Shown: positions 1 through 46,265, counted from the first letter of the stretch. The stretch: DNA of 46,324 nt from Candidatus Shapirobacteria bacterium (GCA_030613565.1 JAUWLS010000004.1:1-46324), one strand, 5' to 3'. Made by a program: numbers and translations. Notes: generated by a model not told the origin, from the sequence alone.

Positions 1-754
1 TTAGTTTCTTTTTAGGAGAAGATGGAGCTGGAGCAGAAGGGGTTTTGGGGGTGGTAGAGAGAGGGGGGTGGGTTGGAGAAAGATCGGGGGTGGATGGAGT
101 TTCCTCTTTGGGGGGTGAAGTGTCTTTTAGATCAAGAATAATGGCGGCAATATCAGAAGAGTCGGGTTTGGAATAGATTTTTGTAGAAAGAGATTCTTTT
201 AAAGATGTGGTATCTGGGTTTTGAAATTCAGTGGAAACAGAATCCGGAAAAGAGGAAAGAAAAGATGAACTTAAAAGAAGATAGCGGTCAGAATCTTTGG
301 GGGCACCAGAGACAATTTGGGGATTGTTTTTGGTGGGAGAAATAAGAGTGGCGGTTTTTTGGTTTCTAATGAGAGTGATGGTGGAATCTCCAAAGGTGCC
401 AAGATAGATAAAGTCCTTGTAGTGAATAGCGATAGCAAGAGAGGTTTTTAGTTTTCCTTCAACAAAGACAGGATGTTCCTCCCCTACTTTCTTTAAAGTT
501 TCTTTGAGTTGATCAAAGGGGGTGTTTTTGGAATCCGTAAAATAGGATTCGTTGAAGAAAGAAATGAGTTCTTTTCCGATGGTACTAATTTCTTGGTCTT
601 GGTCTTCTTTTTTGATAGTTATAAGACCGAAAAGACGACCTCTTTTTTCCAAAAGATCCGAGTCTTGAGGTTGGTTTTCCCAAAATTGAGACCAAGTAGT
701 GTCCGTGGGATGTCCAATGATGGGACGAGTAGAAAAGGACAGGTTTGCAGGCAT
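1..754 (-). CDS. Partial CDS (runs off the left edge): PP2C/SpoIIE-like fold protein, probably degenerate, followed by a Pro/Ser/Thr-rich linker
   Basis: Not in the ORF track. Manual translation from ATG 754 is open to position 2: MPANLSFSTRPIIGHPTDTTWSQFWENQPQDSDLLEKRGRLFGLITI...IYLGTFGDSTITLIR...DRYLLLSS...SDIAAIILDL, then TSPPKEETPSTPDLSPTHPP. GDS and DIAAIILDL resemble PP2C motifs. Confidence 0.7.
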   Translation of the reverse strand, partial: MPANLSFSTRPIIGHPTDTTWSQFWENQPQDSDLLEKRGRLFGLITIKKEDQDQEISTIGKELISFFNESYFTDSKNTPFDQLKETLKKVGEEHPVFVEGKLKTSLAIAIHYKDFIYLGTFGDSTITLIRNQKTATLISPTKNNPQIVSGAPKDSDRYLLLSSSFLSSFPDSVSTEFQNPDTTSLKESLSTKIYSKPDSSDIAAIILDLKDTSPPKEETPSTPDLSPTHPPLSTTPKTPSAPAPSSPKKKL

Positions 755-773
755 TCTAATTTATGATAGCAGA

Positions 774-989
774 CTAGAGAACAACGAAGGCTAGAATGAG
801 GACAAGGACGGCAAGAATGAAATGGATTTTGGAGAGAAGTTTGATCTGAAGATTAAGATTTCCGGAGACAATTTTGGTCATTACAGAGACTTGTTTAACC
901 ACAACATAGGCAAAAACAAGATAGAGGGAGAGGGCAATAAGACTGATTATTTTGGCAGAGAGTAAAACTAGAGAGCTGATTTGGGTCAT
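774..989 (-). CDS. Small two-TM membrane protein (DUF5657-like, CPR-conserved)
   Basis: 71 aa with two hydrophobic helices and the segment LYLVFAYVVVKQVSVM; overlaps the upstream gene's stop by 4 nt. Confidence 0.7.
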   Translation of the reverse strand: MTQISSLVLLSAKIISLIALSLYLVFAYVVVKQVSVMTKIVSGNLNLQIKLLSKIHFILAVLVLILAFVVL

Positions 990-1726
990 CTTAGTCTCCC
1001 TTCTAGGGCCTCTTGCTTTTCTTCAAGACGCATTAGTTGAAGTATTTTTTGAACCTTGGTGGGATTGGGAACAGAAAGGAATTCAAACTCAGGGACTTCG
1101 GCAGCAGTTTGGATGTAAACATCACCGTAATTGAATAGAGAATGAAGGAGACCGCCTTGCTTAACAGTGACGTCTTGGATGGCTTCTAGTTCAGCATCAG
1201 AGATTTCTTTGTACATGAGGGAGTAAAAGTCGATATCGACAATGCGCTCATCGGTAATAATACTGACGTTAAAGTACCAGGAAAGGAAGTTTTCTAAAAC
1301 AAAGGCAAAAACGAGAAGATACCAACTAATAAGGGCAATGAATTGAAAACGCCAAGGGCAAAGATCAATGAAAGGAAGGGTTTTTATGAAAGAGGGGGCT
1401 AGAAACATAAGAAAGGTGACAAAAGCCCAGGGCAAATTAGTAATCCAATGACGACGAAGGACAACAAGGACTTCTTCATCTTTAAATTGAGATTCGAAAG
1501 CAAACCTCTTTTTAGGACGGGCTATGAAGGAAGTAAAAGAACCATTATTAGTTCCAATGAGGCGGTAGACCTGTTTTCTGAACTGATTGACAGCAGATTT
1601 AGTTTTCTTTTTTATTTTTTTCTTGGTGGAGGTTTTGGATTTTTGGGGAGAAGATGGTGTCTTTTTAGGTTTGGTTCGGGGTTCGTCAGGGGCTATATCG
1701 TCAAGATTTTTGGCTCGAGGTGACAT
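986..1726 (-). CDS. Membrane protein with bacterial PH domain (bPH_2/DUF304-like)
   Basis: Motifs RRHW, two TM helices, IITDERIVDIDF, IQDVTVKQGG, FNYGDVYIQTA, VPNP; TATAAT 5 nt before ATG. Confidence 0.8.
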   Translation of the reverse strand: MSPRAKNLDDIAPDEPRTKPKKTPSSPQKSKTSTKKKIKKKTKSAVNQFRKQVYRLIGTNNGSFTSFIARPKKRFAFESQFKDEEVLVVLRRHWITNLPWAFVTFLMFLAPSFIKTLPFIDLCPWRFQFIALISWYLLVFAFVLENFLSWYFNVSIITDERIVDIDFYSLMYKEISDAELEAIQDVTVKQGGLLHSLFNYGDVYIQTAAEVPEFEFLSVPNPTKVQKILQLMRLEEKQEALEGRLR

Positions 1727-1756
1727 GAGTAATTATAGCAGTAAAAAGAGTTGGTT

Positions 1757-2107
1757 TTATCCCCGTTTTTTTTGGACCCAGACAAGAAGTCGTGACCCAC
1801 TAGAGAAAGGTCTTTGTTGTATTTTGGCAAGACTTTTGGACCTGGTGGTGACAACTGGGTAAATGCAATCAAGGGGACCACCTGCTCTTTTGCTTGAGAT
1901 TCTTCCACAAACACCATTAGGTCCGCGGACTTGGGTACAGGCAGTTAATTCTTTTTTATCAGAAAGGCTTAAGTTAGAAGCAAGGTCCACAGTAGCGGTA
2001 CGAATAGATTGAGGATTACGAGAAAGAATTCTTTTTGGACCTAAACAGGTAGTGCTTCTTAAATTGCCGACACCGTATATTGTTAAATAGTCTTTTGATC
2101 TTGCCAT
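1757..2107 (-). CDS. Orphan 116-aa protein with 4 Cys
   Basis: Fills the gap between genes; TAACAT -10-like box 8 nt before ATG; no recognised family. Confidence 0.6.
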   Translation of the reverse strand: MARSKDYLTIYGVGNLRSTTCLGPKRILSRNPQSIRTATVDLASNLSLSDKKELTACTQVRGPNGVCGRISSKRAGGPLDCIYPVVTTRSKSLAKIQQRPFSSGSRLLVWVQKKRG

Positions 2108-2152
2108 AGGAAGTTATGTTAACAAAAGATTTGGGTGGAAAAAAGGGGGAAA

Positions 2153-2920
2153 TTAGAACTTGAGTTCTATTCCGACAGGACAGTGATCTGAGCCTTCTGC
2201 GGAAGGCAAGATGAAAGCTTTTTTAAGATGAGGGAGAAGTTCTTTTTGAATAAAAAAGTAGTCAATACGCCAGCCAACATTGCGTGATCTAGCTCCTGAG
2301 CGCATGCTCCACCAGGAGTATTGGTCTGGTTTTTGAGGATGAAAATGACGGAAAGTGTCAATGTATCCTTTTTTCTCTAACTTGTCGATCCAGACTCTTT
2401 CTTGGGGTAAAAAACCTGATATTTTTTCGTTTTGTTTAGGACGAGCGAGGTCAATGGGGTGATGGGCGGTGTTAACATCACCGCAAAAGATAATTTTTTC
2501 TCCTTTTTTTCTTAAGGATTTGATGTGATCTAAAAATTTTTCGTAGAATTCGAGTTTGTAGTTAAGTCTAACTTTATCTTTTTTTCCGTTTGGAAAATAG
2601 ACGTTTAGGAGAGTGAATTCTTTAAATTTGGTGGTAATTACCCTTCCCTCTTGGTCGAATTTTTTTAGGCTCATTCCGTTTTCGATAGAGATGGGTTTTG
2701 GTTTTGAGAAGGTAGCAACACCAGAATAACCGGGGCGATCAGCTGAATTCCAATAAGTGTAATAGTCTTTTGGCTCATCAAGAGAAGGAGGGACTTGTTC
2801 GGCTCTGGCTTTAGTTTCTTGAAAGCAAATAATGTCTGGTTTTTCTTTATTAACCCAAGGCCAAAGACCTTTTCTTATGGCAGCTCTGATTCCATTTACA
2901 TTCCAAGAAAGGATTTGCAT
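2153..2920 (-). CDS. xth: Exodeoxyribonuclease III / AP endonuclease
   Basis: Motifs SWNVNGIRA, QETK, GDVNTAH, GWRIDYF, GSDHCP; start moved to ATG 2920 (TACAAT-5nt-ATG). Confidence 0.95.
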   Translation of the reverse strand: MQILSWNVNGIRAAIRKGLWPWVNKEKPDIICFQETKARAEQVPPSLDEPKDYYTYWNSADRPGYSGVATFSKPKPISIENGMSLKKFDQEGRVITTKFKEFTLLNVYFPNGKKDKVRLNYKLEFYEKFLDHIKSLRKKGEKIIFCGDVNTAHHPIDLARPKQNEKISGFLPQERVWIDKLEKKGYIDTFRHFHPQKPDQYSWWSMRSGARSRNVGWRIDYFFIQKELLPHLKKAFILPSAEGSDHCPVGIELKF

Positions 2921-2949
2921 ATTCAATTGTAACCCAGGTATGCTTTTTT

Positions 2950-3616: not shown

Positions 3617-4483
3617 CTATTTAGTTGATTCGATTCTGGTCCAGACTTTTTTGAGGGTAGGTTTTTTGAGTTTAAGATCGATGAAGATTTTGATCCAAAG
3701 GTAGAGCCTGAAAAGAAGAGCTAAAAACCAGTAGATGAATTGTTGGGGAGATCTTATGAGAGTGAGGGTGGTAAAAAGATGAGGAATTTCTTTTAGAGGT
3801 CCACGCATGACAGAATTTTTGATTTGAAAAGATGCACCACCGACTGACCTTACTTTTTGACTGATCCAGTCTTTTAAATTGGTGGGGTATTTGACAAACA
3901 CTTGAGCGTTGGGTGCATAGGCGGTTTTATAGCCTTGTTTGATTACATTTTGAGTAATAAGGGCGTCGTCAGCTAGGGTGTCTTTAGGAAGAGGTTTGAA
4001 AAGACTTTTTCTTAAGGCCAAAAGATATCCTGAACAATCAAGAGGAAGATTTTTTTTATAGAGGGTGGTGCGTTGAAGATGAGCGGTTTGAGTAGCAAGA
4101 TAGGCCCAGAAACCATAAAGAGAGTCTCTGGAATTGGTTGGGGTTGGAAAACTAGAAACTATTCCGACTTTTGAATCTTTGAAAGGGGGAAGAAGGTGTT
4201 TTAAGGAATCAGGAGAGGAGTAAACATCACCGTCAGTGAGAACAAGAATAGGATTTTTGGCAACTTTTATAGCTTGATTTAAGGCAGAAGGCTTACCTTG
4301 TCCTGTGTCAGTAATGGTTTTGACTTTGGAAGATGATTTTTTAGCGGCAGTGAGGGTGGGTTTGTCGGGGGCAATGACAATAAGTTCGTCTTTAGGAGTT
4401 AGTTGGGGAAGAAAAGAAGAAATGGCTTTTTTTATGGTTTTTTCTTCTTTAAAGGTAGTAATGATTACAGAAACCGGGGTCAT
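3617..4483 (-). CDS. Glycosyltransferase family 2
   Basis: VSVIITTFKEE, GKPSALN, LTDGD (DxD), ADD, QKVR (QxxRW-like), C-terminal TM. Confidence 0.9.
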   Translation of the reverse strand: MTPVSVIITTFKEEKTIKKAISSFLPQLTPKDELIVIAPDKPTLTAAKKSSSKVKTITDTGQGKPSALNQAIKVAKNPILVLTDGDVYSSPDSLKHLLPPFKDSKVGIVSSFPTPTNSRDSLYGFWAYLATQTAHLQRTTLYKKNLPLDCSGYLLALRKSLFKPLPKDTLADDALITQNVIKQGYKTAYAPNAQVFVKYPTNLKDWISQKVRSVGGASFQIKNSVMRGPLKEIPHLFTTLTLIRSPQQFIYWFLALLFRLYLWIKIFIDLKLKKPTLKKVWTRIESTK

Positions 4484-4540
4484 GGGGTTATTTTAGCAAG
4501 TTTGGGTTGACTAGGTTTGATTTTAAGGGTAGTTTAAGTT

Positions 4541-5269: not shown

Positions 5270-5305
5270 GACAAAACTTTTTCTTTCTGATAGACTCTTT
5301 TACTT

Positions 5306-6190
5306 ATGGAAAAAGTAAAAAAAGGACTGATTGCAGCTGGTGGGTGGTCAACTAGATTTTTACCAGCAGTTAAGACATTTGCTAAGCAAATGGTTCCCAT
5401 TTTAGATAAACCAGGAATTCATTACCTGGTGGAAGAAATGATTGGGGCAGGTGTGGAAGAAATAGCAGTGGTTTCTAGACCAGGAGAAAAGAGTATTGAA
5501 AAGTATTTTAAAGAAGATAAAGAACTTTTTGAATATCTAAAAAAGAGTGGAAAAGAAAAGTGCATGGAAAGCTGGAGGGAAGTAAAAAAGAAGATAAAAA
5601 AATGGGAGTTTTTTGAACAGGGAGATGACTTACCTTATGGGAACGCAAGTCCAATTTTGGCAGCAAAAAGTTTTATTGGAAATGAAGCATTTGTTTACAT
5701 GTTTGGAGATGATTTTGTTTTGGAAGAGGAAGCGGGAGAATATCTTTCTCATTTAATCTCTGTTTTTTCAGAGCATGACCCTGATGTGGTTTTGGGAGTA
5801 CAAGAAGTGCCCACAGAAGAAATAGATAGATACGGAATTGTGGAGTACATGAAAGATAATAAGTACCCCAACAGAGTAAAAAGGGTCATAGAAAAACCGG
5901 CTGCGGATAAAGCCCCGTCTAATATGGCACAGTTTGGAAGGTTTATTTTATCTACTGAGGTGTTAGAGGTCTTAAAAAGACTAGAACTAGGAATCGGAGG
6001 AGAGCTTTGGTTGGCTGATGCAAACAATATGATGGCAAAAGAAGGAGTGGCAATAGCAGAACCGATTAAAAATGGTGAATGGATGACGACTGGAGATCCG
6101 TTGCGATGGTTGAAGGCGAATATAAAAGTGGCTTGGGGAAAAGAAGAATACAGGAAAGAACTGGAAGAACTAATGAAAGAATTAAAGTGA
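5306..6190 (+). CDS. galU: UTP-glucose-1-phosphate uridylyltransferase-like sugar-phosphate nucleotidyltransferase
   Basis: AAGGWSTRFLPAVK..KQMVPILDKP, GDD, RYGIV, IEKP, GELWLAD, TGDP. Confidence 0.8.
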   Translation: MEKVKKGLIAAGGWSTRFLPAVKTFAKQMVPILDKPGIHYLVEEMIGAGVEEIAVVSRPGEKSIEKYFKEDKELFEYLKKSGKEKCMESWREVKKKIKKWEFFEQGDDLPYGNASPILAAKSFIGNEAFVYMFGDDFVLEEEAGEYLSHLISVFSEHDPDVVLGVQEVPTEEIDRYGIVEYMKDNKYPNRVKRVIEKPAADKAPSNMAQFGRFILSTEVLEVLKRLELGIGGELWLADANNMMAKEGVAIAEPIKNGEWMTTGDPLRWLKANIKVAWGKEEYRKELEELMKELK

Positions 6191-8186: not shown

Positions 8187-8846
8187 TTAAACTTTATGTT
8201 GAGGATTGGTCTGTTTTTGAGGTTGGGCGAGAAAAATATTATAAGGTTTGGAGTTTTTTTTGCAGGCCCTGCCGATTTCTTTGGTTAGGGCAGGAATGAA
8301 TGGTAGGTCGATTTTTTTAAGACGGTCAAGAGTGTTGAACCAAACCATTTCCCAGCCATCGTGTTTGAACCCAGCGTATTTCCATTCCAGCATGGAAATA
8401 AGCATGGCAGAGATATTGGCGGCAGAATAGATTTGTTTTTCTAAATTATTAAGATTGATTTCTCGATAATCTGAAACGTCTATTTCTTCTTTTATCAAGT
8501 CAAGCATGGCCTGATGAGCGTTTTGGTTGGCTTGTTTTATTTCTTTACGAATTTCAATGTTCCAAAATGTTTGCCAACTGGGGCTACCAGAGGGCAAATC
8601 CCCTATTATGGATTCAGACCAATCGTGAACAAGGCAATATTTGAGAAGTTTAGATTGGTTTATTTTTTCTTTTTTGGTTTTTGGGAGACTGTCGGCAAAA
8701 AGCATGGCTAGATAAGTCACAAAATAAGAGTGTTCAGCAATGGACATGTTTAGTTCAGATGGTAAACCCATAAAGAGAGTGCCTCCGGCACGTTTGAGAT
8801 GATTTAGGTTTTGGAGGATTTGAATAAGTTTGAAAGTGTTTTTCAT
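8187..8846 (-). CDS. YfbR/HDDC2-like HD-domain protein (5'-deoxynucleotidase family), final metal-ligand Asp replaced by Asn
   Basis: LKR, SIAEHSY, LVHDWSESIIGDLPS, YSAANIS; TATAAT-6nt-ATG. Confidence 0.85.
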   Translation of the reverse strand: MKNTFKLIQILQNLNHLKRAGGTLFMGLPSELNMSIAEHSYFVTYLAMLFADSLPKTKKEKINQSKLLKYCLVHDWSESIIGDLPSGSPSWQTFWNIEIRKEIKQANQNAHQAMLDLIKEEIDVSDYREINLNNLEKQIYSAANISAMLISMLEWKYAGFKHDGWEMVWFNTLDRLKKIDLPFIPALTKEIGRACKKNSKPYNIFLAQPQKQTNPQHKV

Positions 8847-8866
8847 AGTTTTATTATACTTCTTTT
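8808..8866. repeat. 59-bp direct repeat, copy A (HD gene -10 box and first 13 codons)
   Basis: gttttggaggatttgaataagtttgaaagtgtttttcatagttttattatacttctttt; 52/59 identical to 9593-9651. Confidence 0.9.
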
Positions 8867-12112: not shown

Positions 12113-12199
12113 TTAGTTAATTATAGAGGAGAGGAGGGGGAAGAAGAAAAACAGGTTTGCACTGTTCACACCAAAGTTGTCTTGGTATAATCCACATTA

Positions 12200-12739
12200 A
12201 TGAGAAAGTTGATTTTTGGAGTAGTTTTTTTGGCCCTTTTTATGTTTGTGGGGGCAGTTAGTCCTTCTGGTGTAAGGGCTTGTGTTTGTGACGCGAACAC
12301 AGACAATGTTTGTGTGGTAGTTACAGATAGTAGTGATTGTAACTCTGATGAGGTTCCAGTTTGCCAGTCAGGAGGAACGGCAAGTGGTGGGTGTAGAATT
12401 CCAAGTTGTGTTTGCAGAGATGCAAGTAGGACAGTTTTTTGTGCAACAGGAGGTGGAGAGGATGGAATAGATACAGCAATTGGATGTATACCGATTGCTA
12501 GAGAAAGTTTTGTTAACTGGCTTTTGAATAGATTGTTTGGGATTATTGGAGGAATCGCATTTGTGTTAATGGTGGGAGGAGGAATACAAATGGCAATGAG
12601 CGGAGGAGATCCACAAAAATTAAAGGCGGGGCAAGAAGTACTTTCTTCGGCTTTGGCGGGACTTTTGTTTGCTTTGTTTTCCTTGTTTATCTTAAGATTG
12701 ATAATGGTAGATATATTACATATTCCAGGATTAAGTTAA
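12200..12739 (+). CDS. CPR pilin (TrbC/VirB2-like) with a Cys-rich N-terminal domain
   Basis: Signal peptide, 10 Cys, IDTAIGCIP, then TM-GG..MSGGDPQKLKAGQE-TM pilin signature. Confidence 0.8.
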   Translation: MRKLIFGVVFLALFMFVGAVSPSGVRACVCDANTDNVCVVVTDSSDCNSDEVPVCQSGGTASGGCRIPSCVCRDASRTVFCATGGGEDGIDTAIGCIPIARESFVNWLLNRLFGIIGGIAFVLMVGGGIQMAMSGGDPQKLKAGQEVLSSALAGLLFALFSLFILRLIMVDILHIPGLS

Positions 12740-13912: not shown

Positions 13913-13945
13913 GTTTAGGGATTATATAACGGAATGAATAGTATC

Positions 13946-16300: not shown

Positions 16301-16564
16301 TTAAAAAAGGTTTTTTTCAGAAACAAGATTACCTTGCTCTAGGTCTTTTAGTCCTTGTTTAATGTCTTTAGTGAGTTTTTTATCGCTAAGAATACTGATT
16401 GTTTCTTCCCAGGACTCTAGTTCTTCTAAAGAAATTAGAGCGGCTTTGGCTTTGCCTTTTTTGGTTATTATGTAGCGTTTGAACTCGTTAGCAGTAGTGT
16501 CTATAAGGTTATAAAGTTTGGATCTGGCTTCGCTAGCAGAAATGGTTATGTTCTGAGATAACAT
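16301..16564 (-). CDS. Phd/YefM-family antitoxin
   Basis: ISASEARSKLYNLID, ITKKGKAKAALIS, ESWEETISIL. Confidence 0.9.
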   Translation of the reverse strand: MLSQNITISASEARSKLYNLIDTTANEFKRYIITKKGKAKAALISLEELESWEETISILSDKKLTKDIKQGLKDLEQGNLVSEKNLF

Positions 16565-16569
16565 AAGTT

Positions 16570-32122: not shown

Positions 32123-32138
32123 AATGTAGAATAAAGAA

Positions 32139-34805: not shown

Positions 34806-35124
34806 ATGGTTTAGGATATCATGAATTTAAGGGTGGAAATGAGTAAGGTAGAGAGAATGTGGATAAAGGAATGTATTAAATAAATAAGATAAAAGAAATA
34901 GTAGACGTAGTATTAGGGGGTGTTGATAAGTAGGAAAGGTTGAGTGGGTGAACTTGGAAAAACGGGGGGAAAGTAAAAAAAGGCGGAAAGTTTAGATTGG
35001 AGAAGAAGGAATTGACTTATAAGAAAGACAGGGGTTTGGGTTATGTTTGGTTGAAAAAAGAGAGGAGTTGGTGGAAATGTTTGTGGATAAAAAAGAGAAG
35101 GATGTGGAAAAGTATTTTTAAAGA
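34806..35124. other. oriC: Putative replication origin oriC (dnaA-dnaN intergenic region)
   Basis: DnaA boxes TGTGGATAA (34858, 35082), TGTGGAAAA (35103) and TGTTGATAA (34921); AT-rich tract 34871-34900; DnaA-trio-like TAG TAG ACG TAG TAT TAG plus GGGG abutting the 34921 box. Confidence 0.85.
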
Positions 35125-36586: not shown

Positions 36587-36673
36587 ATGAACAAGAGGGT
36601 AAGTGGGGATGTTTTTGGTTTTATTTGGGATAAGGATTCCTAAGAAGAGTAAGGTTTGGTATAATAGCGCGTT

Positions 36674-36829
36674 ATGCCTAAAAGAACATATCAGCCAAAG
36701 AAGAAGAAAAGAGTGAGAAAACATGGCTTTTTAAAGCGCATGTCAACTGCTATTGGAAGAAAGACTTTGAAGAAAAGAAGAGCTAAGGGAAGAAAAATGC
36801 TAACCGTAAAGAAAAAGATGAGGTACTAG
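36674..36829 (+). CDS. rpmH: 50S ribosomal protein L34
   Basis: Not in the ORF track (51 aa): [51 protein letters not shown]; TATAAT-8nt-ATG. Confidence 0.97.
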
Positions 36830-36842
36830 GTTAAAATAGAGT

Positions 36843-37187
36843 GTGCTTTTAAAGGAAAGAATGATTTCTCTAGATAAGGATTTTAAAGAGGTATTGGCGG
36901 ATGGAGTAATGCAGCAATCTCCCCTATTTGGAATGTTGGTTTTAAAAAGAGAAGGAGAGAAAACTAGGTTTGGAGTGATAGTTTCTAAAAAGATTGATAA
37001 GAGGGCAGTTACTAGAAACAGAATAAGGAGAGTGATTTTGGAGTCAGTGAGACTTTCACTGAGCAGTGTTAAAGATGGTTATTTGGTAGTTTTTTTAGCA
37101 AAGAAGAGATTGGTGGGTTTGGGATTGGAAGAAGTGGGGAAAGAAGTGATAGAGAGTTTTAAAAAGGCAGGATTGATTTTGAAATGA
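36843..37187 (+). CDS. rnpA: Ribonuclease P protein component
   Basis: RFGVIVSKKIDKRAVTRNRIRR; conserved position after rpmH. Confidence 0.95.
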   Translation: MLLKERMISLDKDFKEVLADGVMQQSPLFGMLVLKREGEKTRFGVIVSKKIDKRAVTRNRIRRVILESVRLSLSSVKDGYLVVFLAKKRLVGLGLEEVGKEVIESFKKAGLILK

Positions 37188-37420: not shown

Positions 37421-37445
37421 AACTGAGTTTGATAGAATATAGCTT

Positions 37446-38222
37446 ATGAAAGAATTATGGACAACAGTTTTATACCAACCCTTGATCAATGCTTTATTTG
37501 GTCTTTACATGGTGACGGGGAATTTGGGGGTGGCCATTATTGGATTAACAATCGGAATTCGATTTTTAATGATGCCTTTGACTTTACCTTCAATGAAGTC
37601 AGCTCAGAAGATGAAGGACTTGGCGCCAGAATTAGCTAAGCTTAAGAAAAAGTGGGGGCATGATAAAGAAAAGATGGCTAAAGCCCAGATGGATTTTTAC
37701 AAAGAAAGAGGAGTAAATCCAGCTTCGGGGTGTTTGCCTCAGATTGTTCAGATCATAGTTTTGTTGGCCATGTTTCAGGCTTTTAGGAATGGTTTGAATC
37801 TAGAAGGAACAGAGGCAGTTAGCAAAATTAATGAAAGTTTGTATTCCTTTTTACAGTTACCTAGTGACTTTTCATTCAACCTAAAGTTTTTATATTTAAA
37901 TTTGGCTGAACCAGATTTAATCAAAATTGGGGCAATATCAATACCGGGATTGTTTTTGACAGGATCAGCAATTTTCCAGTTTATATCAGCAAAGCTAATG
38001 ATGCCTAAAGCGGAGAAAGATGTGAAGATAGCTAAAAAAACAGAAGAGAAGAAAGATGACATGATGGCAGCAATGCAGAAACAATCTTTGTTTTTGATGC
38101 CTTTATCAACTTTGTTCATTGGTTATAGTTTCCCTTCAGGATTAGTACTTTATTGGTTTGTTTTTTCGGTATTTAACACGATTCAACAGTTAGTGCTTAA
38201 GAAGGTTGGGTCAAAAAAGTAA
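37446..38222 (+). CDS. yidC: YidC/Oxa1 membrane protein insertase
   Basis: GVAIIGLTIGIR, NPASGCLP, FPSGLVLYW; conserved synteny. Confidence 0.95.
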   Translation: MKELWTTVLYQPLINALFGLYMVTGNLGVAIIGLTIGIRFLMMPLTLPSMKSAQKMKDLAPELAKLKKKWGHDKEKMAKAQMDFYKERGVNPASGCLPQIVQIIVLLAMFQAFRNGLNLEGTEAVSKINESLYSFLQLPSDFSFNLKFLYLNLAEPDLIKIGAISIPGLFLTGSAIFQFISAKLMMPKAEKDVKIAKKTEEKKDDMMAAMQKQSLFLMPLSTLFIGYSFPSGLVLYWFVFSVFNTIQQLVLKKVGSKK

Positions 38223-38255
38223 GGCTGAAAAGGACTTGTGATAAAATTGGTGGAT

Positions 38256-38759
38256 ATGGCCAGCAAAATAACAATTGATCAGGACACAGTTTCCAAAATA
38301 GAAGAGAAGGTTCGAGGACTTTTAACTTTGATGAATAGAGTGGGAACAGAGGTAGAGATAAACGTGATTGAGGAAGAGGGCGAAGAGAAAATAATGGTTA
38401 AGTTTTTAACTGATGATCCAGGACCAATGATTGGGTTTAAAGGTAAACATTTGGCAGCAATGCAGATGATGTTGGGGTTGATGGTGAATAACAACAGAGA
38501 AGAGTGGATAAGAATATTGGTGGATATAAATGAATACAGAGATGAGCAGAAAGTAAGACTGGAAGAGAAGGCAAGAAACTTTGCCCAACAGTGCTTGGAT
38601 ACAGGAAGACCAGTAGGACTTGAAAGAATGAGTTCTTTTGAGAGAAGGATTGTTCATATGACTTTGGCTGAAGTTGAAGGAGTAGAGACAGGGTCTGAAG
38701 GTGAAGGAGAGATGAGAAGAGTGGTGATTAGACCTGCCGGCTCTTTAGATGCAGAATAA
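38256..38759 (+). CDS. jag: Jag/KhpB-like KH + R3H RNA-binding protein (no Jag_N domain)
   Basis: MIGFKGKHLAAMQ, VDINEYR, MSSFERRIVH, SEGEG..RRVVI; start moved to ATG 38256. Confidence 0.9.
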   Translation: MASKITIDQDTVSKIEEKVRGLLTLMNRVGTEVEINVIEEEGEEKIMVKFLTDDPGPMIGFKGKHLAAMQMMLGLMVNNNREEWIRILVDINEYRDEQKVRLEEKARNFAQQCLDTGRPVGLERMSSFERRIVHMTLAEVEGVETGSEGEGEMRRVVIRPAGSLDAE

Positions 38760-40252: not shown

Positions 40253-40270
40253 TTGTTGTTAAAATAGAGA

Positions 40271-41482
40271 ATGAAGGAAGTTTTATCTAACACAGGAGTT
40301 CAGATTTTAGGAAAGGTGGTAATGGTGGTGGTGGGGTTTTTAACAACGGGGATTTTGACCAGAAGGTTAGGAGTAGAAGTGTATGGAGATTATTTACTGA
40401 TTCAATCATTACTTTTAGTGGTAGGGTCCTTTTCAAACATGGGGACAGGGGTGATTGGAGTCAGAGAGCTTTCTAGAAAGAAAGAAGAGAAAAAGTTTTT
40501 AAACATAGTGTTTTTAAGAAAGTTTTTGAGTTTGGGAGCAATAGCAGGATTAGTGCTTTTTAGCCTGGTTTGGAGTCCTCTATCAATGATTAGACTACCA
40601 ATTTTAATTGGAGGATTAACAATATTTTTAATTTCTTTTTTGGGAGATTTGGGAATAGTTTTTCAAGTGGATTTGAAGATGGGATGGAAGAGTCTTTTGG
40701 AGCTTTTAAGCCCAGTTTTAATAATGGTGGGATTGATTTGGTGGGCTGATGTGGGATTGGTTGAAGTAATGATAATAGGTCTTTTAGTTCGACTTTTAGT
40801 TTTAGGGATTGGAAAAGGATTAGTTAAAGGATTGGGAAGAAAGATATTTTCTTTATTTTCTGAGATTGATTGGAAGTTGGTTAAAAAGATTTTTGTGATG
40901 AGTTGGCCGATGGGGCTTTATTTACTGGTTTTTACATCTTATGACAAGATGATTGATTCATTGATGATCAGACACTTTTTAGGAAGAGAAGGGGTGGCTT
41001 GGTATGGGTTGGCGTATAAGGTGTACAGTAACTTGGTAATGCCGGCTTACTTTTTAGTAAGTAGTGTGTTTCCCCTACTTTCTAAGAAGAAAGATAATGG
41101 ACAATTAGTTAAACAAGGGTTAATTGTTCTTTTAGGAATGGTAGTAATGGGCCTACCTTTAGTATGGATGGGAGCAGGATGGATAATGGAGGCTTTGGGA
41201 GGTGAAGGATTTTATGAGGGAGTACAGGTGTTAAAGATTTTAGGTTTAGCTTTGGGCTTTTCATACGTGAATCATATGTTTGGTTTTTTACTGATTGCTC
41301 GGGATGGGCAGAAGAAAATGCTTTCTTATGGATTAATAGCAATAGTGTTTAATCTAGCACTTAATCTTTTGGTGATTCCAGTTTGGGGTATTAATGGGGC
41401 GGCAGGGGTAACAATAGCAACAGAGGGGTTGATGACAATTCTTTTGGTTTCAGGGTTAAGACCCTCTTACTTTAAGAGGTGA
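40271..41482 (+). CDS. Wzx-type polysaccharide flippase
   Basis: NTGVQILGK, TRRLGVEVYGDY, YDKMIDSLMI, YGLAYK, LNLLVIPVWGINGAA; about 12 TMs. Confidence 0.9.
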   Translation: MKEVLSNTGVQILGKVVMVVVGFLTTGILTRRLGVEVYGDYLLIQSLLLVVGSFSNMGTGVIGVRELSRKKEEKKFLNIVFLRKFLSLGAIAGLVLFSLVWSPLSMIRLPILIGGLTIFLISFLGDLGIVFQVDLKMGWKSLLELLSPVLIMVGLIWWADVGLVEVMIIGLLVRLLVLGIGKGLVKGLGRKIFSLFSEIDWKLVKKIFVMSWPMGLYLLVFTSYDKMIDSLMIRHFLGREGVAWYGLAYKVYSNLVMPAYFLVSSVFPLLSKKKDNGQLVKQGLIVLLGMVVMGLPLVWMGAGWIMEALGGEGFYEGVQVLKILGLALGFSYVNHMFGFLLIARDGQKKMLSYGLIAIVFNLALNLLVIPVWGINGAAGVTIATEGLMTILLVSGLRPSYFKR

Positions 41483-41672: not shown

Positions 41673-42006
41673 TTAAGATAATAGCATTTTTGATATAGTC
41701 TGGGGTTCATTGTACTGACTTTTTTCTTTCTCTAAAACAGCACGATATAGCAGGGTTCTGACGATTTTTTTCAATAATCCAAACCTAAGAACCCATTAGA
41801 GGAAATTGATTTTAATATGTACAACTTAAGAATTCCCTCATATCAAGTTATGACATTTTTCACGTACCGACTCCCTTAAACTAAAATGGATTTGAGGGTG
41901 GGGGGTGGTTTTTTGGGTGGGGGATTAATAAAATGATAACCGCAGAATAACCGTTTATTCTTCGCAATAGCTTTAAAAAGTGATCTGGTTTGTCTAGAAT
42001 GAATCT

Positions 42007-45000
42007 ATGTCAGAAAGAGGTTTTTCGAAAATTGAGTTTGGGGCTGAGAATCCAGTGACAATAGTTTATGGAATGGGGAGCTTTTTGGCTAAGCATGTTT
42101 GTGAAGAGCTGGTAAGAAAAGGATTGAATGTTTTGGGAGTGGGGGAGGTGGATGAGAAGAGTATTTCTTTTTTGGAAAACGAAAAACAATTTAGACATGT
42201 TAACTATTTGGTGGATAGTTGGGCGGAAAAGATAGATCCTGCTTATGTGTTTGATTTGGAGGGATCAGAAGAGCTTTGGAAGTGGGTAGAGAAGTGGGGA
42301 TCCAGGATAGTTATTTTACAAGATTGGAAAGACAATGAGGAAGGTTATAAGAAAAGAGATATGGACTGGAGAGTGGTGAAAACAGGAATGGTGTATGGGC
42401 CAGGAATGATGTTTTCTGATTCGGGTTGGTTGGGAAAAGTCTTTCAGGAGGCAGTGGGAAACGAAAGGATGATTTTTCCTGGAAAGAAAACAGATGAATG
42501 GCCGGTTTTGTATGTAAATGATTTGGTCGAGCTTTTGATGGGAGCTTGCTTTTTTCCAAATGTTTCAAAAGAGGTTTTAGAAGTAGGAGGAAGAGAGGTA
42601 GAGCTAGGTAAGTTTGCGAAAGTTTTAGAGGATGTAGGAAAGACAACGAAAGGAATGGGTTTTGAGGGTGGAGTATTGCCTTGGAGTGTTGCGAAAGAAA
42701 AGATGGGGATAGAAGAAAGGGTTAGTTGGGAAGCGGAGACGGAGATAGAAGAGGGAGTTCGGTTGACAATGCAGGACTTTTTTCAGAGAAAAGAAAAAGG
42801 AGAAAATTTAGGTAAGACTACCAGGGTAGAAGAAAAGAAAGTGGAGATTAAAGAAGAAGAGCCAATAGAGGAAGAAAAGATTGAGAAGAAAAGATATCAA
42901 ACAGTGGAAGTTTTGGGTTCGGAAAAGGAGGAAGGAGAATCTGAAACCAAAGAAAAGTTTGAAGAGACAGTTGCAGTAACTCCCTTAAAAGAAGAAGTAA
43001 AAGAAGTTGAAGAAGAAATCGACTGGTTAAAGAGAGTGGAGGAGAAAATAGAACGGGAAGTGGAGGAAAAGATGGAGATAGAAAAAGAAGAGATAGCAGC
43101 TCCAGTAGAAAAAAAGAAAGAGTTTGGAATTTCTGAACAAGAAGAAGTGGTTCGTTTCTTTGCAGAAGAGAAGAAGGGGCTTGGGTTTGGAAAGAGAGTA
43201 AAGAAAGAAAAGCAAAAGGTAGAGAAAGTGGGGAAAAAGAGGGGGTGGGGGAAGTGGTTAACAATAGTGTTGTTGGTTGGCTTTTTAAGTTTGATTTCTG
43301 GTCCAATCTTCATGATAGTAGATGGATATTTAGTCTTTAAAGATTTATCCAAAGTTAAATCTTTAGTAGTCTCTAAGAACTGGGGTTTGGCAGAAGAGGT
43401 TCTGGTTACTAGTAAAAAAAGAGTAGAGAGGATGGAGGGAAAAATTGGCCGGTGGGGAGTAAGAGACTGGCTGTGGGGAAGAAGATTTTCAGATTTGGTG
43501 GTTTTAGAAAGAGAAGTTTTGGAGGTAGGGGAGATAGGACTGGAGTTGGTTAAGACAGGGGATACTTTTTCTCAGGGAGTGTTTCAGGCAGAGGTAGTTG
43601 ATTGGGAAGGTGAGTTTTTAAGACTAGGAGAGAACTTGGAAGAACTAGAAGAAGGGTTATCTATGGTTCAGGCGAGAATGATAGGAGATTGGGGATGGTT
43701 GCCTGGTAAGTGGAGAGGAGAACCTAGAAAATGGGGGGAGAGGATAGGAGAAGGAAAAGATAAAATTTCATATTTAAGAGAGAGCTTGCCAGTGTGGGAG
43801 TATGTTTTGGGAGTAGGAGGAGAAAAAAGAGAATTTTTAGTACTTTTACAAAACGAAATGGAGATTAGGCCAACAGGAGGATTCATTGGCTCGGTTGGAT
43901 TTTTGAGTTTTCAAGATGGTCAGTTTTTAGATTTTTCAATTAAGGATGTTTACAGTTTGGATGGTCAGCTTAAGGGACATGTGGATCCACCAGAGGAGCT
44001 GGAGAAATATTTGGGTGAACCAGGATGGTACTTAAGAGATGCAAACTGGGATCCTGATTTTTCAAAGTCAGTAACGGATATAAATTGGTTTTTAGAAAAA
44101 GAAACAGGAAAGAAAGTGGATGGGGTAATAGGAATGAATTTGGCAGTGGCTGAAAAAATAGTGGGGGTGGTTGAGAAAGTTTATATACCAGACTATGAAG
44201 AAGAGATAACAGTAGAAAACCTTTATGAACAGGCAGAGCTTTATTCAGAGAACAAGTTTTTCCCGGGTTCCTCTCAAAAAGCAACATTTTTAGGAATGCT
44301 TGGAAAAGTCCTTTTAGAAGAAGTAAGGCTTTTGGGTCCAGATGGATACTTAAAACTAGGAGAGGCACTTTTGGGATCTTTAGAAGAAGGGGAGTTAATG
44401 ATTTCTTTTAATAAAGGAGAAGGGGTAGAGGAATCAAGAAGAATTCTTTCAGATACAGGGTGGGATGGGCAGTTACAAAAAGTGAGTTGTAGCAAGAGTG
44501 GTTGCGGGGTTAACTATTTACATATTAACGAGGCGAATGTGGGAGTGAACAAAGCCAATTACTTTTTAAAAAGGGGAGTAGAGCAGGTGGTTGATCTTAG
44601 AGTTGACGGTTTTTCAAGTGTAGTAAAGATTAATTATGAGAACACAGCAAGGACTTCGGCGTGGCCGGCGGGAGATTATAAGGCATATGTAAGAGTTTAT
44701 GTTCCAAGAAAATCAAAAGTTGATTGGGTAAAAATTGGAGGAGAAGGAGAAGAGGGGTTAAAAATTTCAGGAGATGATCTTAGCGAAAAGACAGTGGGGG
44801 ATAAAAAAGAATTAGGATTTTTACTAAAAGTTCCAGTTTCAGAAAAGAGAAAAGTAGAAGTTAAGTATAGTTTGGATTTTTCTAAGGCAGGGGAGAGTTT
44901 GTCTTTCATTTATTATCTTCAAAAGCAGGCTGGATGGGGAAATAGAACTCCATTTTCTTTAGTGATTTCAGTTCCTGAAGGATGGAACCCATTGCAGGTT

Positions 45001-45090
45001 TATCCAGAGGCAACAATAGTGAGCGGAAAGCTTTTGTATTCAGATCAGATTGAAAAAGACTTAAAGATTGGGGTGGAGTTGGGAAAGTAG
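42007..45090 (+). CDS. DUF4012-domain membrane protein with an N-terminal degenerate NAD-dependent epimerase-like domain
   Basis: IVYGMGSFLAKHV, VYGPGM, LYVNDLV; Glu/Lys-rich linker; TM; LLQNEMEIRPTGGFIGS, LRDANWDPDF, ANVGVNKAN, YVRVYVP, QKQAG. Confidence 0.85.
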   Translation: MSERGFSKIEFGAENPVTIVYGMGSFLAKHVCEELVRKGLNVLGVGEVDEKSISFLENEKQFRHVNYLVDSWAEKIDPAYVFDLEGSEELWKWVEKWGSRIVILQDWKDNEEGYKKRDMDWRVVKTGMVYGPGMMFSDSGWLGKVFQEAVGNERMIFPGKKTDEWPVLYVNDLVELLMGACFFPNVSKEVLEVGGREVELGKFAKVLEDVGKTTKGMGFEGGVLPWSVAKEKMGIEERVSWEAETEIEEGVRLTMQDFFQRKEKGENLGKTTRVEEKKVEIKEEEPIEEEKIEKKRYQTVEVLGSEKEEGESETKEKFEETVAVTPLKEEVKEVEEEIDWLKRVEEKIEREVEEKMEIEKEEIAAPVEKKKEFGISEQEEVVRFFAEEKKGLGFGKRVKKEKQKVEKVGKKRGWGKWLTIVLLVGFLSLISGPIFMIVDGYLVFKDLSKVKSLVVSKNWGLAEEVLVTSKKRVERMEGKIGRWGVRDWLWGRRFSDLVVLEREVLEVGEIGLELVKTGDTFSQGVFQAEVVDWEGEFLRLGENLEELEEGLSMVQARMIGDWGWLPGKWRGEPRKWGERIGEGKDKISYLRESLPVWEYVLGVGGEKREFLVLLQNEMEIRPTGGFIGSVGFLSFQDGQFLDFSIKDVYSLDGQLKGHVDPPEELEKYLGEPGWYLRDANWDPDFSKSVTDINWFLEKETGKKVDGVIGMNLAVAEKIVGVVEKVYIPDYEEEITVENLYEQAELYSENKFFPGSSQKATFLGMLGKVLLEEVRLLGPDGYLKLGEALLGSLEEGELMISFNKGEGVEESRRILSDTGWDGQLQKVSCSKSGCGVNYLHINEANVGVNKANYFLKRGVEQVVDLRVDGFSSVVKINYENTARTSAWPAGDYKAYVRVYVPRKSKVDWVKIGGEGEEGLKISGDDLSEKTVGDKKELGFLLKVPVSEKRKVEVKYSLDFSKAGESLSFIYYLQKQAGWGNRTPFSLVISVPEGWNPLQVYPEATIVSGKLLYSDQIEKDLKIGVELGK

Positions 45091-45091
45091 G

Positions 45092-45391
45092 ATGAAAAAT
45101 TTTATAAGAAAGAGGGAAGATTTTATTTGTGAGGTTTGTGGGGAAGAAGTTTTGGGGGATGGTTATACAGATCATTGTCCGAAATGTTTGTGGGGGAAGC
45201 ATGTGGATGAGGAGGTTCCAGGAGATAGGAATTCAGAATGTGGAGGATTAATGAGACCAATAAAGGCTTTGCATGAGAAGGGGAGGTTTAAGATATTTTA
45301 TAAATGTGAGGAATGCGATCATGAATTTGGGGTTAAGGAAGGTAAAAATGACAAGAGAGAAAAACTTTTGGAACTATCAAGAATGGTTTAG
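45092..45391 (+). CDS. RNHCP-domain zinc-ribbon protein
   Basis: FICEVCG, YTDHCPKCLWGKHVD..PGDR..ECGGLM, CEEC; start moved to ATG 45092. Confidence 0.9.
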   Translation: MKNFIRKREDFICEVCGEEVLGDGYTDHCPKCLWGKHVDEEVPGDRNSECGGLMRPIKALHEKGRFKIFYKCEECDHEFGVKEGKNDKREKLLELSRMV

Positions 45392-45462
45392 TGCGGATAA
45401 AATTCAGACATTGTGCGGTATTTGTGGAGAAAAGAAGATTAAGGCTTGTGGTAGAATGAGCC

Positions 45463-46265
45463 GTGGCTAGCAAAAAGAAAAAAGAAGTTAAAAAAACAAG
45501 TAAGAAAAAAGGTTTGGACTGGGATAGTTTACCTAAAGAGCTTAAGGATAAATTACCAAAACAAATGAAGGTAAAAAAGATGGTAGTGATTAATCCAAAG
45601 AACGTGATGAGATGGATTTTGTATCTTTTGATTGGGTTTTATTTTTTAGGAATGGTTCTAACTGCACTGGGTCCGGAGGTTTCAAAGATAAGCCTCTCAG
45701 AAGCGATAAGAGACATTAAGGAAGGAAGGGTGGAGAGTATAAAGGTAACAGGGGATAAGATTTCACTGAAACTGACTGACGGAGCAGGAGTGGTAGTAAC
45801 AGAGAAAGAAGAGGACGTTAGTTTTTCAGAAATATTAAATGATGCTGACGTGGACACTTCTAGTTTGGACTTTGAGGTGGATAATATGTCAGGGATGAAG
45901 ACGTTTGGAAATGTGGTTTTAAATTTATTATCAATTGGTTTGCCTCTTATTTTCATCTATTTTATTTTTAGACAAGTCGGAAAGGCACAGGGTGGAGTTT
46001 TTAACTTTGGGAAATCAAAAGCAAAGTTATTTATAAAGGGAAAACAAAAGACGACCTTTAAAGATGTGGCAGGAGTGGAAGAAGCAAAGGAAGAGTTGGA
46101 AGAAATAGTAGATTTTTTGAAGCATCCTGAAAAGTACAGAAAGATGGGAGCGAGGATTCCAAGAGGAGTTTTATTGGTAGGTCCGAGTGGAGTAGGAAAA
46201 ACTCTGTTGGCGCGTGCTGTGGCAGGTGAAACAGGAGTGGCATTTTTTTCAATGGCAGGGAGTGA
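45463..46265 (+). CDS. ftsH: ATP-dependent zinc metalloprotease FtsH, truncated at the end of the sequence
   Basis: Two TMs, [59 protein letters not shown]; homology breaks off after about 46265. Confidence 0.95.

Follow-up and report, generated by a model that had tools for sequence, protein, structure and literature searches.

Why do so many start codons in this stretch of DNA stand directly behind what looks like a promoter -10 box? The window, by which we mean the whole stretch of 46,324 nt, belongs to the tiny 858-kb genome of an uncultivated member of Candidatus Shapirobacteria, from the CPR (candidate phyla radiation)/Patescibacteria. A preliminary description had reported boxes a few bases before most starts, without Shine-Dalgarno (SD) sites and despite an intact anti-SD, and had read them as signs of mostly monocistronic, leaderless mRNAs. 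The observation itself, that -10 boxes abut start codons more often than chance would allow, holds. Taken as a whole, the picture is very probably that of an organism with an extended -10 box as its main promoter, mRNAs of the leaderless type and few SD-led genes. Our analysis bears directly on the position, sequence and statistics of the box, on its promoter identity as judged from tRNA genes, and on how far it is conserved, both in relatives and phylum-wide; from the position of the box we infer the transcription start site and the mode of translation initiation, and it is in this sense that 'leaderless' is used here.

Boxes and start codons in the window

With the pattern TANNNT and a spacer of 5-9 nt, 26 starts in the window carry a box. 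Eighteen had been quoted in the preliminary description, and every one of these reads exactly as it was given; eight are additional. A TG lies one base ahead of the hexamer at 11 of the 18 quoted sites and at 17 of all 26. On the minus strand, the quoted boxes precede the ATG of a bPH_2-domain protein gene (TGcTATAAT, 5 nt; 1724..1737), of an Exo_endo_phos gene whose longest ORF begins at a TTG two codons earlier (TACAAT, 5 nt; 2918..2931), of a glycosyltransferase family 2 gene (TGcTAAAAT, 6 nt; 4481..4495) and, each time as TATAAT, of genes for an HD/YfbR-like protein (6 nt; 8844..8858), a SpoIID-domain protein (7 nt; 12110..12125) and undecaprenyl diphosphate synthase (8 nt; 13910..13926). 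Among the listed sites, only the one at 16562..16598 on the same strand (TTGACA, 17 nt, TACGAT, 5 nt, ATG) has a complete -35 hexamer. Within 20164..20222, two divergent starts lie 53 nt apart, each behind its own box: the ATG at 20166 of a HAD hydrolase gene on the minus strand (TGcTATTAT, 5 nt) and the ATG at 20220 of a thioredoxin-reductase-like gene on the plus strand (TATAAT, 7 nt).

Further quoted sites on the plus strand lead to the ATG of a glycosyltransferase group 1 gene (TGgTAAAAT, 7 nt; 21620..21638), the ATG of a gene for a 1027-aa DUF4012 protein (TAGAAT, 6 nt; 41995..42009) and the GTG of ftsH (TGgTAGAAT, 5 nt; 45449..45465). Boxes also stand before rpmH, encoding the 51-aa L34 (TGgTATAAT, 8 nt, ATG; 36657..36676), before rnpA, 14 nt past the rpmH stop (TAAAAT, 5 nt, GTG; 36832..36845), before yidC (TGaTAGAAT, 7 nt, ATG; 37430..37448) and before the jag/KhpB-like gene (TGaTAAAAT, 8 nt, ATG at 38256; 38238..38258).

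The eight additional starts lie at 2107, 5306, 12200, 17710, 21347, 32139, 34805 and 40271. Two are on the minus strand: that of a 116-aa ORF (TGtTAACAT, 8 nt, ATG; 2105..2121) and that of dnaN, which has a weak box (TGaTATCCT, 7 nt, ATG; 34803..34818). The others, on the plus strand, belong to an NTP_transferase gene (TGaTAGACT, 9 nt, ATG; 5291..5308), a 179-aa ORF (TGgTATAAT, 8 nt, ATG; 12183..12202), a YibE/F-like gene divergent from recF (TGaTATACT, 6 nt, GTG; 17695..17712), a 92-aa ORF at 21347-21625 (TGgTATAAT, 7 nt, ATG; 21331..21349), a 213-aa ORF (TAGAAT, 6 nt, ATG; 32127..32141) and a polysaccharide biosynthesis protein gene (TGtTAAAAT, 5 nt, ATG; 40257..40273). Scored with the motif matrix, 25 of the 46 called window genes reach at least 4, three of these 25 at implausible internal starts.

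The box can also mislead the choice of start codon. In four apparent N-terminal extensions (MIKSN-M, MIELG-M, MLLFP-M and MIKLVD-M), identified as false in the preliminary description and borne out here, the extended -10 contributes its TG to the apparent (A/G)TG start. Thus the A and TG of the box TGaTAAAAT, 5 nt before the ATG at 23656 of a 5'-3' exonuclease gene (minus strand, 23654..23671), yield the false start MIKSN-M at 23671; TGaTAGAAT, 5 nt before the ATG at 29210 (plus strand, 29195..29212), creates MIELG-M at 29195; and the box of the jag/KhpB-like gene forms a GTG at 38238 that gives MIKLVD-M. Pfam domains start at residues 3-6 of the shorter, unextended proteins.

Excess over background and promoter identity

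Within the 20 nt upstream of starts (-20..-1), the hexamer with the greatest enrichment genome-wide is TATAAT, seen 65 times where 3.2 are expected. At spacer 5-8, 380 of 855 genes score 4 or more with the motif matrix; the corresponding counts are 161-194 when the window is shifted and 159 +/- 12 when the local 30 nt are shuffled. A stricter threshold is passed by 70, compared with 4.1 +/- 2.6 in the shuffles. The genome under test also served to train the matrix, a bias that these same-matrix controls limit but do not remove. The preliminary description had named beforehand, as a test, whether TAnnnT exceeds the A/T-rich background, and by these counts the scored motif does. We also used 158 'verified' starts, fixed independently of the motif by conservation in the relative G001 (DnaA 58% identical), and found a box at spacer 5-8 in 71 of them (45%), where shifted windows gave 12-18. 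Both the gene calls and the verified starts were made with a home-made caller and include its errors: Pfam alignments contradict the start that its heuristic chose at 23671 and, for jag, at 38331. We count 73 occurrences of the strict pattern TGNTANAAT-N5-8-ATG, and 61 of these coincide with an in-frame candidate start of a called gene; the reversed pattern occurs 5 times and the same pattern at N15-18 9 times. We therefore give hardly any credence to chance, with the boxes arising merely from the A/T richness of intergenic DNA and from start choice beside TA-rich sequence, which the shuffle, conservation-fixed-start and reversed-pattern controls already refute, although the loose TANNNT is indeed frequent (211-253 of 856 genes in shifted windows too) and an EM estimate of 72% box genes is inflated by A/T richness. 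Box frequency is about 45% of genes raw and about 36% above chance. 'Most starts' is too strong for this: roughly one gene in two has the box, and so do about 60% of the divergent operon heads.

Distances from TANAAT to the next ATG show a peak that control hexamers lack: 267 of 2581 sites fall at 5-8 nt, and of these 138 open ORFs of at least 80 aa. The EM fit weights spacers of 6, 5, 7 and 8 nt at 0.27, 0.21, 0.15 and 0.10, and the verified set counts 31, 22, 9 and 9 for the same lengths. Box-positive verified starts are 65 ATG, 5 GTG and 1 TTG, so that 70 of 71 are ATG or GTG; since box-negative starts are nearly alike, start-codon usage does not discriminate.

Evidence that the box is a promoter element comes from genes that are not translated. 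In 16 of 44 tRNA genes, a motif with a score of at least 7 is followed after 7-15 nt by the mature 5' end, compared with 0-2 in other windows and 0.43 +/- 0.63 in shuffles. Among 414 sites aligned on TANNNT, and without selection for it, the TG one base before the hexamer appears with T at 0.52 and G at 0.48; with the EM fit included, the values are 0.52-0.54 and 0.48-0.50. Within the hexamer, conservation is highest at the A of the second position (0.94) and in the TA...T frame, as expected of a sigma-70-type -10. The box also prefers operon-first genes: it precedes 17 of 29 divergent genes in the verified set (control, 1) and 127 of 234 in the all-genes set (controls, 52 and 45), whereas overlapping same-strand genes of the all-genes set show no enrichment (49 of 182; controls, 44 and 39). 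A -35 element was looked for as TTG or as at least four of the six bases of TTGACA, and no peak emerged at any gap of 12-23; two-hexamer promoters were likewise not in excess (36, compared with 32.9 +/- 6.9 in shuffles). Extended -10 (TGn) promoters need no -35 element, and those described here appear to have the features of that class, so that a TTGACA-like hexamer located 16-18 nt upstream would be dispensable.

From promoter to start codon

We propose that the main promoter of the organism would be an extended -10 box of consensus TGnTAnAAT without a recognisable -35 hexamer, its end placed 5-8 nt (mode 6) from the start codon at roughly half of the genes and at about 60% of those that need a promoter of their own. 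RNA polymerase would take the first base of the start codon, A or G, as its initiation point, or begin 1-2 nt upstream, and the resulting mRNA would have neither a 5' leader nor a ribosome-binding site; translation would proceed as for the leaderless mRNAs of Actinobacteria and Deinococcus, the ribosome binding directly to the 5'-terminal AUG. The preliminary reading is to this extent supported, if indirectly: the modal spacer of 6, the TG, the tRNA genes and the divergent heads all suit -10 elements from which transcription would begin at the start codon or no more than 1-2 nt away from it.

If the boxes are promoters, most transcripts might still have their 5' ends shortly upstream of the ATG or at more distant sites, giving short-leadered mRNAs whose A/U-rich, unstructured 5' end serves translation. 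We regard this as unlikely. Spacers of 7, 8 and 9 nt are common (64, 57 and 43 of the 414 aligned sites), the tRNA genes place the mature 5' end at 7-15 nt from the box, and at some genes the box lies 11-35 nt upstream; yet the mode of those aligned sites is 6, with 5 the other modal spacer, and box positions show no second peak further upstream. Given that a -10 and its transcription start usually lie about 7 bp apart (PMC12641261), the modal spacers of 5-6 would place the start on the A of the ATG. For spacers of 7-9 nt, a leader of 1-3 nt would be as likely as none. Since some boxes do lie further upstream (17 nt before the ATG of recF at 17668, as TATAAT, and 11 and about 35 nt at others), short-leadered and leadered mRNAs probably coexist with leaderless ones.

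Very unlikely, in our view, is that the A/T-rich box is no promoter and instead acts on leadered mRNAs as a non-SD ribosome-binding or standby site, in the manner of 'group B' Bacteroidetes and perhaps read by a short S1. The near absence of SD sites would suit such a site, as would a four-domain S1 homolog encoded in the genome, the A-rich 6 nt preceding box-negative starts (A at 0.39-0.60) and the box found at 15 of 35 genes located 1-19 nt downstream of a same-strand neighbour. It would leave unexplained, however, the motif at tRNA genes, the TG of extended -10 promoters and the sigma-70-like conservation of the hexamer. The box is, moreover, enriched at divergent heads and not at overlapping genes, whereas the group B upstream motif is described by Lomsadze et al. 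(2018; PMC6028130) as preceding internal and initial genes alike and as not being a promoter.

Leaderless-type promoters would account for only part of the gene complement. No scoring box precedes 87 of the 158 verified starts, 12 of the 29 divergent genes, or dnaA. Many box-less genes, having neither box nor SD, abut or overlap the upstream gene and would probably be carried on its transcript; rnpA and yidD overlap at ATGA. Of the 25 verified genes that overlap or abut a neighbour, 8 have a box (control, 3), and here internal promoters are not distinguishable from read-through. The proposal that mRNAs are mostly monocistronic is thus unsupported by the box-less starts, the unenriched overlapping genes and the rnpA-yidD overlap.

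The original statement that SD sites are lacking needs a similar adjustment. It is right overall, as SD cores are not enriched at the verified starts (8 of 158; control, 15). Strong SD 5-mers, however, occur at 41 first candidates compared with 15-26 in controls, an excess of about 2-3% of genes, and the Pfam-confirmed genes in this set include those for EF-Tu (tuf), EF-Ts (tsf), L24 (rplX), L13 (rplM) and SSB (ssb), which would form a small minority with classical strong SD sites. Two SD-led counter-examples lie in the window: a DUF5320 protein gene on the minus strand (AAAGGAGGTGA, 5 nt, ATG at 19393; 19391..19409), with 11 nt of anti-SD complementarity and without a -10 box in position, and an operon-internal VirB4/TraG-like ATPase gene on the plus strand (GGAGGTGA, 4 nt, ATG at 26188; 26176..26190). 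The anti-SD is intact, as had been claimed: the 16S rRNA gene (14339-15800, minus strand; Rfam SSU match full length, 1-1533) carries CACCTCCTT at 14339..14350, and the rRNA ends in ...GGATCACCTCCTTTCT. It is likely retained because the SD-led minority remains. Some Parcubacteria have SD-independent translation through loss of the anti-SD, with CCTCC missing (Tsurumaki et al., 2022, PMC9297842); that 3' end and the full-length match exclude such a loss here.

Relatives and known leaderless systems

The layout is conserved. In G001, a box precedes 68 of the 158 starts, compared with 10-17 in controls, and its boxed orthologs include dnaN (TGATAATAT, 6 nt, ATG), rnpA (GATATAAT, 6 nt, GTG) and recF; the start of the NTP_transferase gene at 5306 is also kept there. 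In a survey of the phylum, the strict pattern is more frequent at N5-8 than at N15-18 in 143 of 151 genomes and more frequent than its reverse in 150 of 151; none of five non-CPR comparators has an excess.

In type, the layout is the leaderless arrangement known from GeneMarkS-2 as 'group C'. According to Lomsadze et al. (2018, PMC6028130), this group comprises Actinobacteria (Mycobacterium, Streptomyces, Corynebacterium) and Deinococcus-Thermus with leaderless transcription. The first genes of their operons have a Pribnow-type -10 box 6-8 nt from the start codon, leaderless transcripts are predicted to make up 25-50% of the total, and the starts are ATG or GTG, which gene finders that expect SD sites misplace. 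The organism studied here shares a -10 motif near starts above background, the operon-first preference and ATG/GTG starts. It differs in that the remaining genes of group C use SD sites, whereas here only a few percent are SD-led, so that the dual model does not apply, and in that its promoter is an extended -10 without a -35. CPR names are absent from the group lists in the six supplementary files of PMC6028130 that were searched.

Bacteroidetes offer another likeness, with an intact 16S anti-SD, very few SD genes and a few special ones with strong SD sites. Their ribosome sequesters the anti-SD. Their mRNAs are leadered, unlike the leaderless ones we propose here, and their motif, unlike that of this organism as judged from tRNA genes and operon heads, is not a promoter. 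With extended -10 promoters the organism shares the TG one base upstream of the hexamer and the lack of a -35 signal; unlike the usual ones, these are apparently the default class of the genome and are fused to the start codon.

Our literature search found no paper on such a promoter-start layout in CPR bacteria, and the only CPR start-site set that we found cited, that of N. lyticus, was reportedly inferred from RNA-seq coverage. A short -10 element may by itself suffice for expression in this organism, as the preliminary description had suggested, which fits the absence of a detected -35 signal. Leaderless expression is a known mode of gene expression, and it seems to have gone undescribed for this large CPR group.

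Extended −10 boxes ahead of start codons

[quoted passage not shown] The preliminary description had claimed that genes in the window are leaderless, with a −10 hexamer (box) ending 5–9 nt before the start codon and no Shine-Dalgarno (SD) sequence, despite an intact anti-SD. All 18 of its examples read exactly as quoted, 11 of them with TG one base before the hexamer, and a TANNNT at the same spacers precedes eight further window starts, for a total of 26, 17 of which carry the TGn. When scored with a position matrix, 25 of the 46 called window genes reach at least 4 at spacer 5–9, although three of these do so at internal start candidates, which we regard as chance. Four N-terminal extensions suspected of being false (MIKSN-M, MIELG-M, MLLFP-M and MIKLVD-M) proved to be so: the ATG or GTG that opens the longer ORF owes its TG to the extended −10, and with the shorter starts the Pfam domains 5_3_exonuc_N, Pyr_redox_2, HAD_2 and Exo_endo_phos begin at residues 3–6.

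The box observation is real and highly non-random. Among 870 genes called by a simple codon-usage caller, a home-made program that missed rpmH, a yidD-like ORF and a 92-aa ORF at 21347, TATAAT showed the strongest enrichment of any hexamer over the 20 nt preceding starts when no motif was assumed (65 observed, 3.2 expected), followed by TAAAAT (74 vs 10.2) and TAGAAT (34 vs 3.3); SD words were absent from the top 18 in this 20-nt interval. Measured from each TANAAT, the next ATG most often lies 5–8 nt away, with 64, 84, 62 and 57 sites compared with about 19–36 per position at 9–20 nt, and 138 of the ATGs 5–8 nt away are the starts of ORFs 80 aa or longer; no peak at 5–8 nt before ATG was seen with control hexamers of similar composition. 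TANNNT at spacer 5–9 was found before some candidate start of 414 of 856 genes, compared with 211–253 in five shifted windows and 40 of 303 internal decoys. Scored by the learned matrix, 380 of 855 genes reached at least 4 at spacer 5–8 (161–194 in shifted windows, 159 ± 12 in shuffles), while at a score of 8 the count was 70 genes against 6–11 and 4.1 ± 2.6, respectively. An EM mixture estimate that 72% of genes carry the motif was rejected as inflated because the matrix drifted towards A/T-rich sequence, and we therefore rely on the excess over shifted windows and shuffles. It should be noted that 38 of the 108 matrix sites scoring at least 9 lie more than 300 nt from any start candidate and that many strong sites are intragenic, so that the matrix by itself does not define promoters.

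Start codons can be fixed independently by conservation, for which we used a relative, G001 (a 735-kb contig, G+C 32%, DnaA 58% identical). A start was accepted as verified when the candidate starts of both members of a reciprocal-best-hit pair lay on the same alignment diagonal, as in 161 of 414 pairs, 158 of them usable; for 140 of the 161 the start codon coincides exactly with the beginning of the alignment. A box at spacer 5–8 precedes 71 of the 158 verified starts in the source genome (45%; 12–18 in six shifted windows) and 68 in G001 (10–17), the pairs dividing into 39 with a box in both genomes, 32 in the source genome only, 29 in G001 only and 58 in neither. The G001 orthologs of dnaN, recF, rnpA and a thioredoxin-reductase-like gene, among others, have well-placed boxes of their own. 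At least two heuristic starts, at 38331 (jag) and 23671 (5′-3′ exonuclease), are contradicted by Pfam alignments; such errors would dilute the box signal rather than create it. In 10 of the 71 box-positive cases the verified start is not that of the longest ORF. Start-codon usage was uninformative as a discriminator, the proportions of ATG, GTG and TTG at box-positive verified starts being close to those at box-negative ones.

A promoter rather than a ribosome site

Sites aligned on TANNNT alone show T at −3 (0.52) and G at −2 (0.48), that is, an extended −10 element, TGnTAnAAT. No −35 element accompanies it: neither TTG nor matches to at least four of the six TTGACA positions peak at gaps of 12–23, and a scan of positions 1–20000 for consensus two-hexamer promoters gave 36 hits, not above shuffles (32.9 ± 6.9). 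In the same 20 kb, terminator-like sites are in mild excess (26 vs 17.3 ± 4.4).

A motif placed so close to start codons might be read as a site for the ribosome rather than for RNA polymerase, and the tRNA genes provide the decisive test against that reading. At 16 of 44 tRNA genes a motif scoring at least 7 ends 7–15 nt before the mature 5′ end, compared with 0–2 in other tRNA upstream windows and 0.43 ± 0.63 in shuffles. The genomic setting of the boxes was also recorded: among all genes, divergent ones carry a box in 127 of 234 cases (52 and 45 in controls), and no enrichment is seen where a gene overlaps its neighbour on the same strand (49 of 182, compared with 44 and 39). For the box as a promoter, the usual distance from −10 element to start site of about 7 bp (PMC12641261), together with a modal spacer of 6 and then 5, would make the A of the ATG the first base transcribed. 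Leaderless transcription is the best explanation, and on the strength of box position we consider it probable. The boxes at tRNA genes would also leave precursor 5′ leaders of only about 1–9 nt for RNase P, and transcription in this organism seems in general to produce very short 5′ extensions.

The intact anti-SD was confirmed, the 16S rRNA 3′ end reading ...GGATCACCTCCTTTCT. That SD sequences are lacking holds overall, since cores (GGAG or GAGG) at −18 to −4 are not enriched at verified starts (8 of 158 vs 15 in the control; G001, 8 vs 6), but as a general statement it goes too far, for a small set of strong SDs exists. Strong 5-mers at spacer 4–10 precede 41 first candidates genome-wide compared with 15–26 in shifted windows, which puts the excess at about 2–3% of genes, and 36 genes show anti-SD complementarity of at least 6 nt, including those for EF-Tu, EF-Ts, L24, L13, SSB and a VirB2-like pilin (Pfam where given) and, in the window, the VirB4-like ATPase starting at 26188. 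A DUF5320 protein gene (19118–19393, minus strand) has 11 nt of complementarity; outside the window, strong-SD loci of the source genome lie at C12:13947–14198 and C14:3504–3836 and on contigs C34 and C18. The strongest SDs are complementary to the 16S 3′ end over up to 12 nt, and a small EF-Tu-domain-2-like protein is among their bearers. SD-dependent initiation thus appears to survive in a small gene set that includes very abundant proteins, which would be sufficient reason for keeping the anti-SD intact. Ribosomal protein S1, whose presence had been put forward as a check, is encoded by a single ORF, no longer than 407 aa and with four S1 domains, likewise in relatives, in agreement with the three or four domains of most CPR bS1 proteins (PMC9297842). 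One relative, G003, has beside its short four-domain form a much better match (G003:C8:2123–3262, 454 bits) in a 618-aa ORF, which could be a long paralog or bin contamination.

Operons, leaders and the content of the window

The claim that most genes are boxed was overstated: about 45% of verified starts have a box, about 36% above chance, and a majority is reached for divergent genes, with 17 of 29 verified starts (~59%) against 1 in the control. Among verified same-strand genes, boxes occur at 13 of 31 whose gap is 60 nt or more, 16 of 34 at 20–59 nt, 15 of 35 at 1–19 nt and 8 of 25 that overlap (controls, 2–6); with boxes in every class, transcription units look short and many internal promoters are suggested. 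The further proposal of mostly monocistronic mRNAs is not supported, given that a box is missing from over half of the genes, that 297 of 596 same-strand pairs lie less than 15 nt apart (longest-ORF starts) and that the yidD-like 78-aa ORF (37184–37420, plus strand) overlaps the rnpA stop in an ATGA. This ORF has no box of its own and is likely to be translationally coupled inside the rpmH-jag block. Boxes lie 11–35 nt upstream at some operon heads. At dnaA (35125–36498, minus strand), separated from rpmH by 175 nt (36499–36673) and with a start, MD..IWKNT, conserved in eight relatives, no −10 box at leaderless spacing was found here or at most of the eight relatives' loci. Leadered mRNAs would therefore coexist with leaderless ones.

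Besides dnaA, the window holds dnaN, recF, rpmH-rnpA-yidD-yidC-jag, ftsH, one 16S rRNA gene, cell-envelope genes and a type-IV-secretion-like cluster (24430–31762, plus strand). The latter comprises a PrgI-family protein, a 262-aa ORF, a VirB4/TraG-P-loop ATPase of 988 aa whose tail is long and of low complexity, and a protein of 850 aa with no Pfam match. A GAF domain fused to an adenylate/guanylate cyclase catalytic domain (7044–8174, minus strand; Pfam) is a signalling enzyme within a very small genome. The two strands differ to an extreme degree in G and C: GC skew is +0.36 across the window, positive in all 2-kb bins but the 16S region and on either side of dnaA, independent of gene strand; the remaining contigs range from −0.41 to +0.33, and in G001 cumulative skew climbs without a turn along the entire 735-kb contig. 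A like oddity in other Microgenomates (order UBA1400) has been tentatively attributed to unidirectional replication (Kadnikov et al., 2020, PMC7143001).

Spread across the Patescibacteria and its meaning

A strict pattern, TGNTANAAT-N5-8-ATG, occurs 73 times in the source genome, 61 of them on in-frame start candidates, compared with 5 times reversed and 9 times at N15–18. We searched for it in 151 genomes of at least 80% completeness sampled evenly from the phylum, including the source genome, which ranks fourth, and G153, a genome flagged as unpublished, with two matches. The totals were 5165 at N5–8, 2152 at N15–18, and 1348 and 1279 for two reversed controls. N5–8 exceeded the reversed pattern in 150 of the 151 genomes (at least 3-fold in 104) and N15–18 in 143 (at least 2-fold in 93), a uniform direction, with the proviso that related genomes are not independent and that the strict pattern is a crude proxy. 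Five comparators from outside the phylum, four cyanobacteria and one Sphingobacterium MAG, showed no excess (11/17, 31/35, 2/1, 17/17, 7/8).

The mechanism itself is well known, and what the window adds is a clean, well-controlled example and a whole-phylum view, a new lineage for a known mechanism rather than a new kind of system. The layout is that of GeneMarkS-2 'group C', with a Pribnow box 6–8 nt from the start of operon-first genes, a layout frequent in Actinobacteria (90%) and Deinococcus-Thermus (97%), with 25–50% of transcripts leaderless (PMC6028130). Unlike in the actinobacterial model, non-box genes in the source genome almost lack SDs, and the promoters are extended −10 elements without a −35. 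Our full-text literature search returned no paper, reference lists aside, that ties leaderless genes or SD usage to CPR lineages. Tsurumaki et al. (2022, PMC9297842) discuss anti-SD loss in Parcubacteria without using the word 'leaderless', and a cited CPR start-site set, 188 sites in N. lyticus, was inferred from RNA-seq coverage (PubMed id 35975994). With moderate confidence, we propose that leaderless, −35-less and almost SD-free expression is a phylum-wide trait of the Patescibacteria, which would make them the third large lineage of this type, more extreme than the other two, Actinobacteria and Deinococcus-Thermus. Under this proposal, a TGnTAnAAT of about 9 nt placed 6 nt before the ATG would suffice for expression, with SD-dependent initiation retained by no more than a few highly abundant proteins (such as EF-Tu, EF-Ts, certain ribosomal proteins and SSB).

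Gene finders that expect SDs or take the longest ORF mis-place starts, as in the four cases of 5–6 false codons in the window; if the phylum-wide reading is true, CPR start codons would be systematically mis-called, for instance through extensions of this length from the box TG. Expression signals are needed for the few CPR bacteria now amenable to culture and transformation, and the 9-nt box 6 nt before ATG is a concrete candidate design. A phylum-wide expression signal this minimal may also help tiny genomes to stay compact. Ribosomes are reduced in CPR bacteria, and the S1 protein is short, with three or four domains (PMC9297842); leaderless initiation as the default would fit this reduction, and it touches the long-standing question whether initiating without a leader is the ancestral state.
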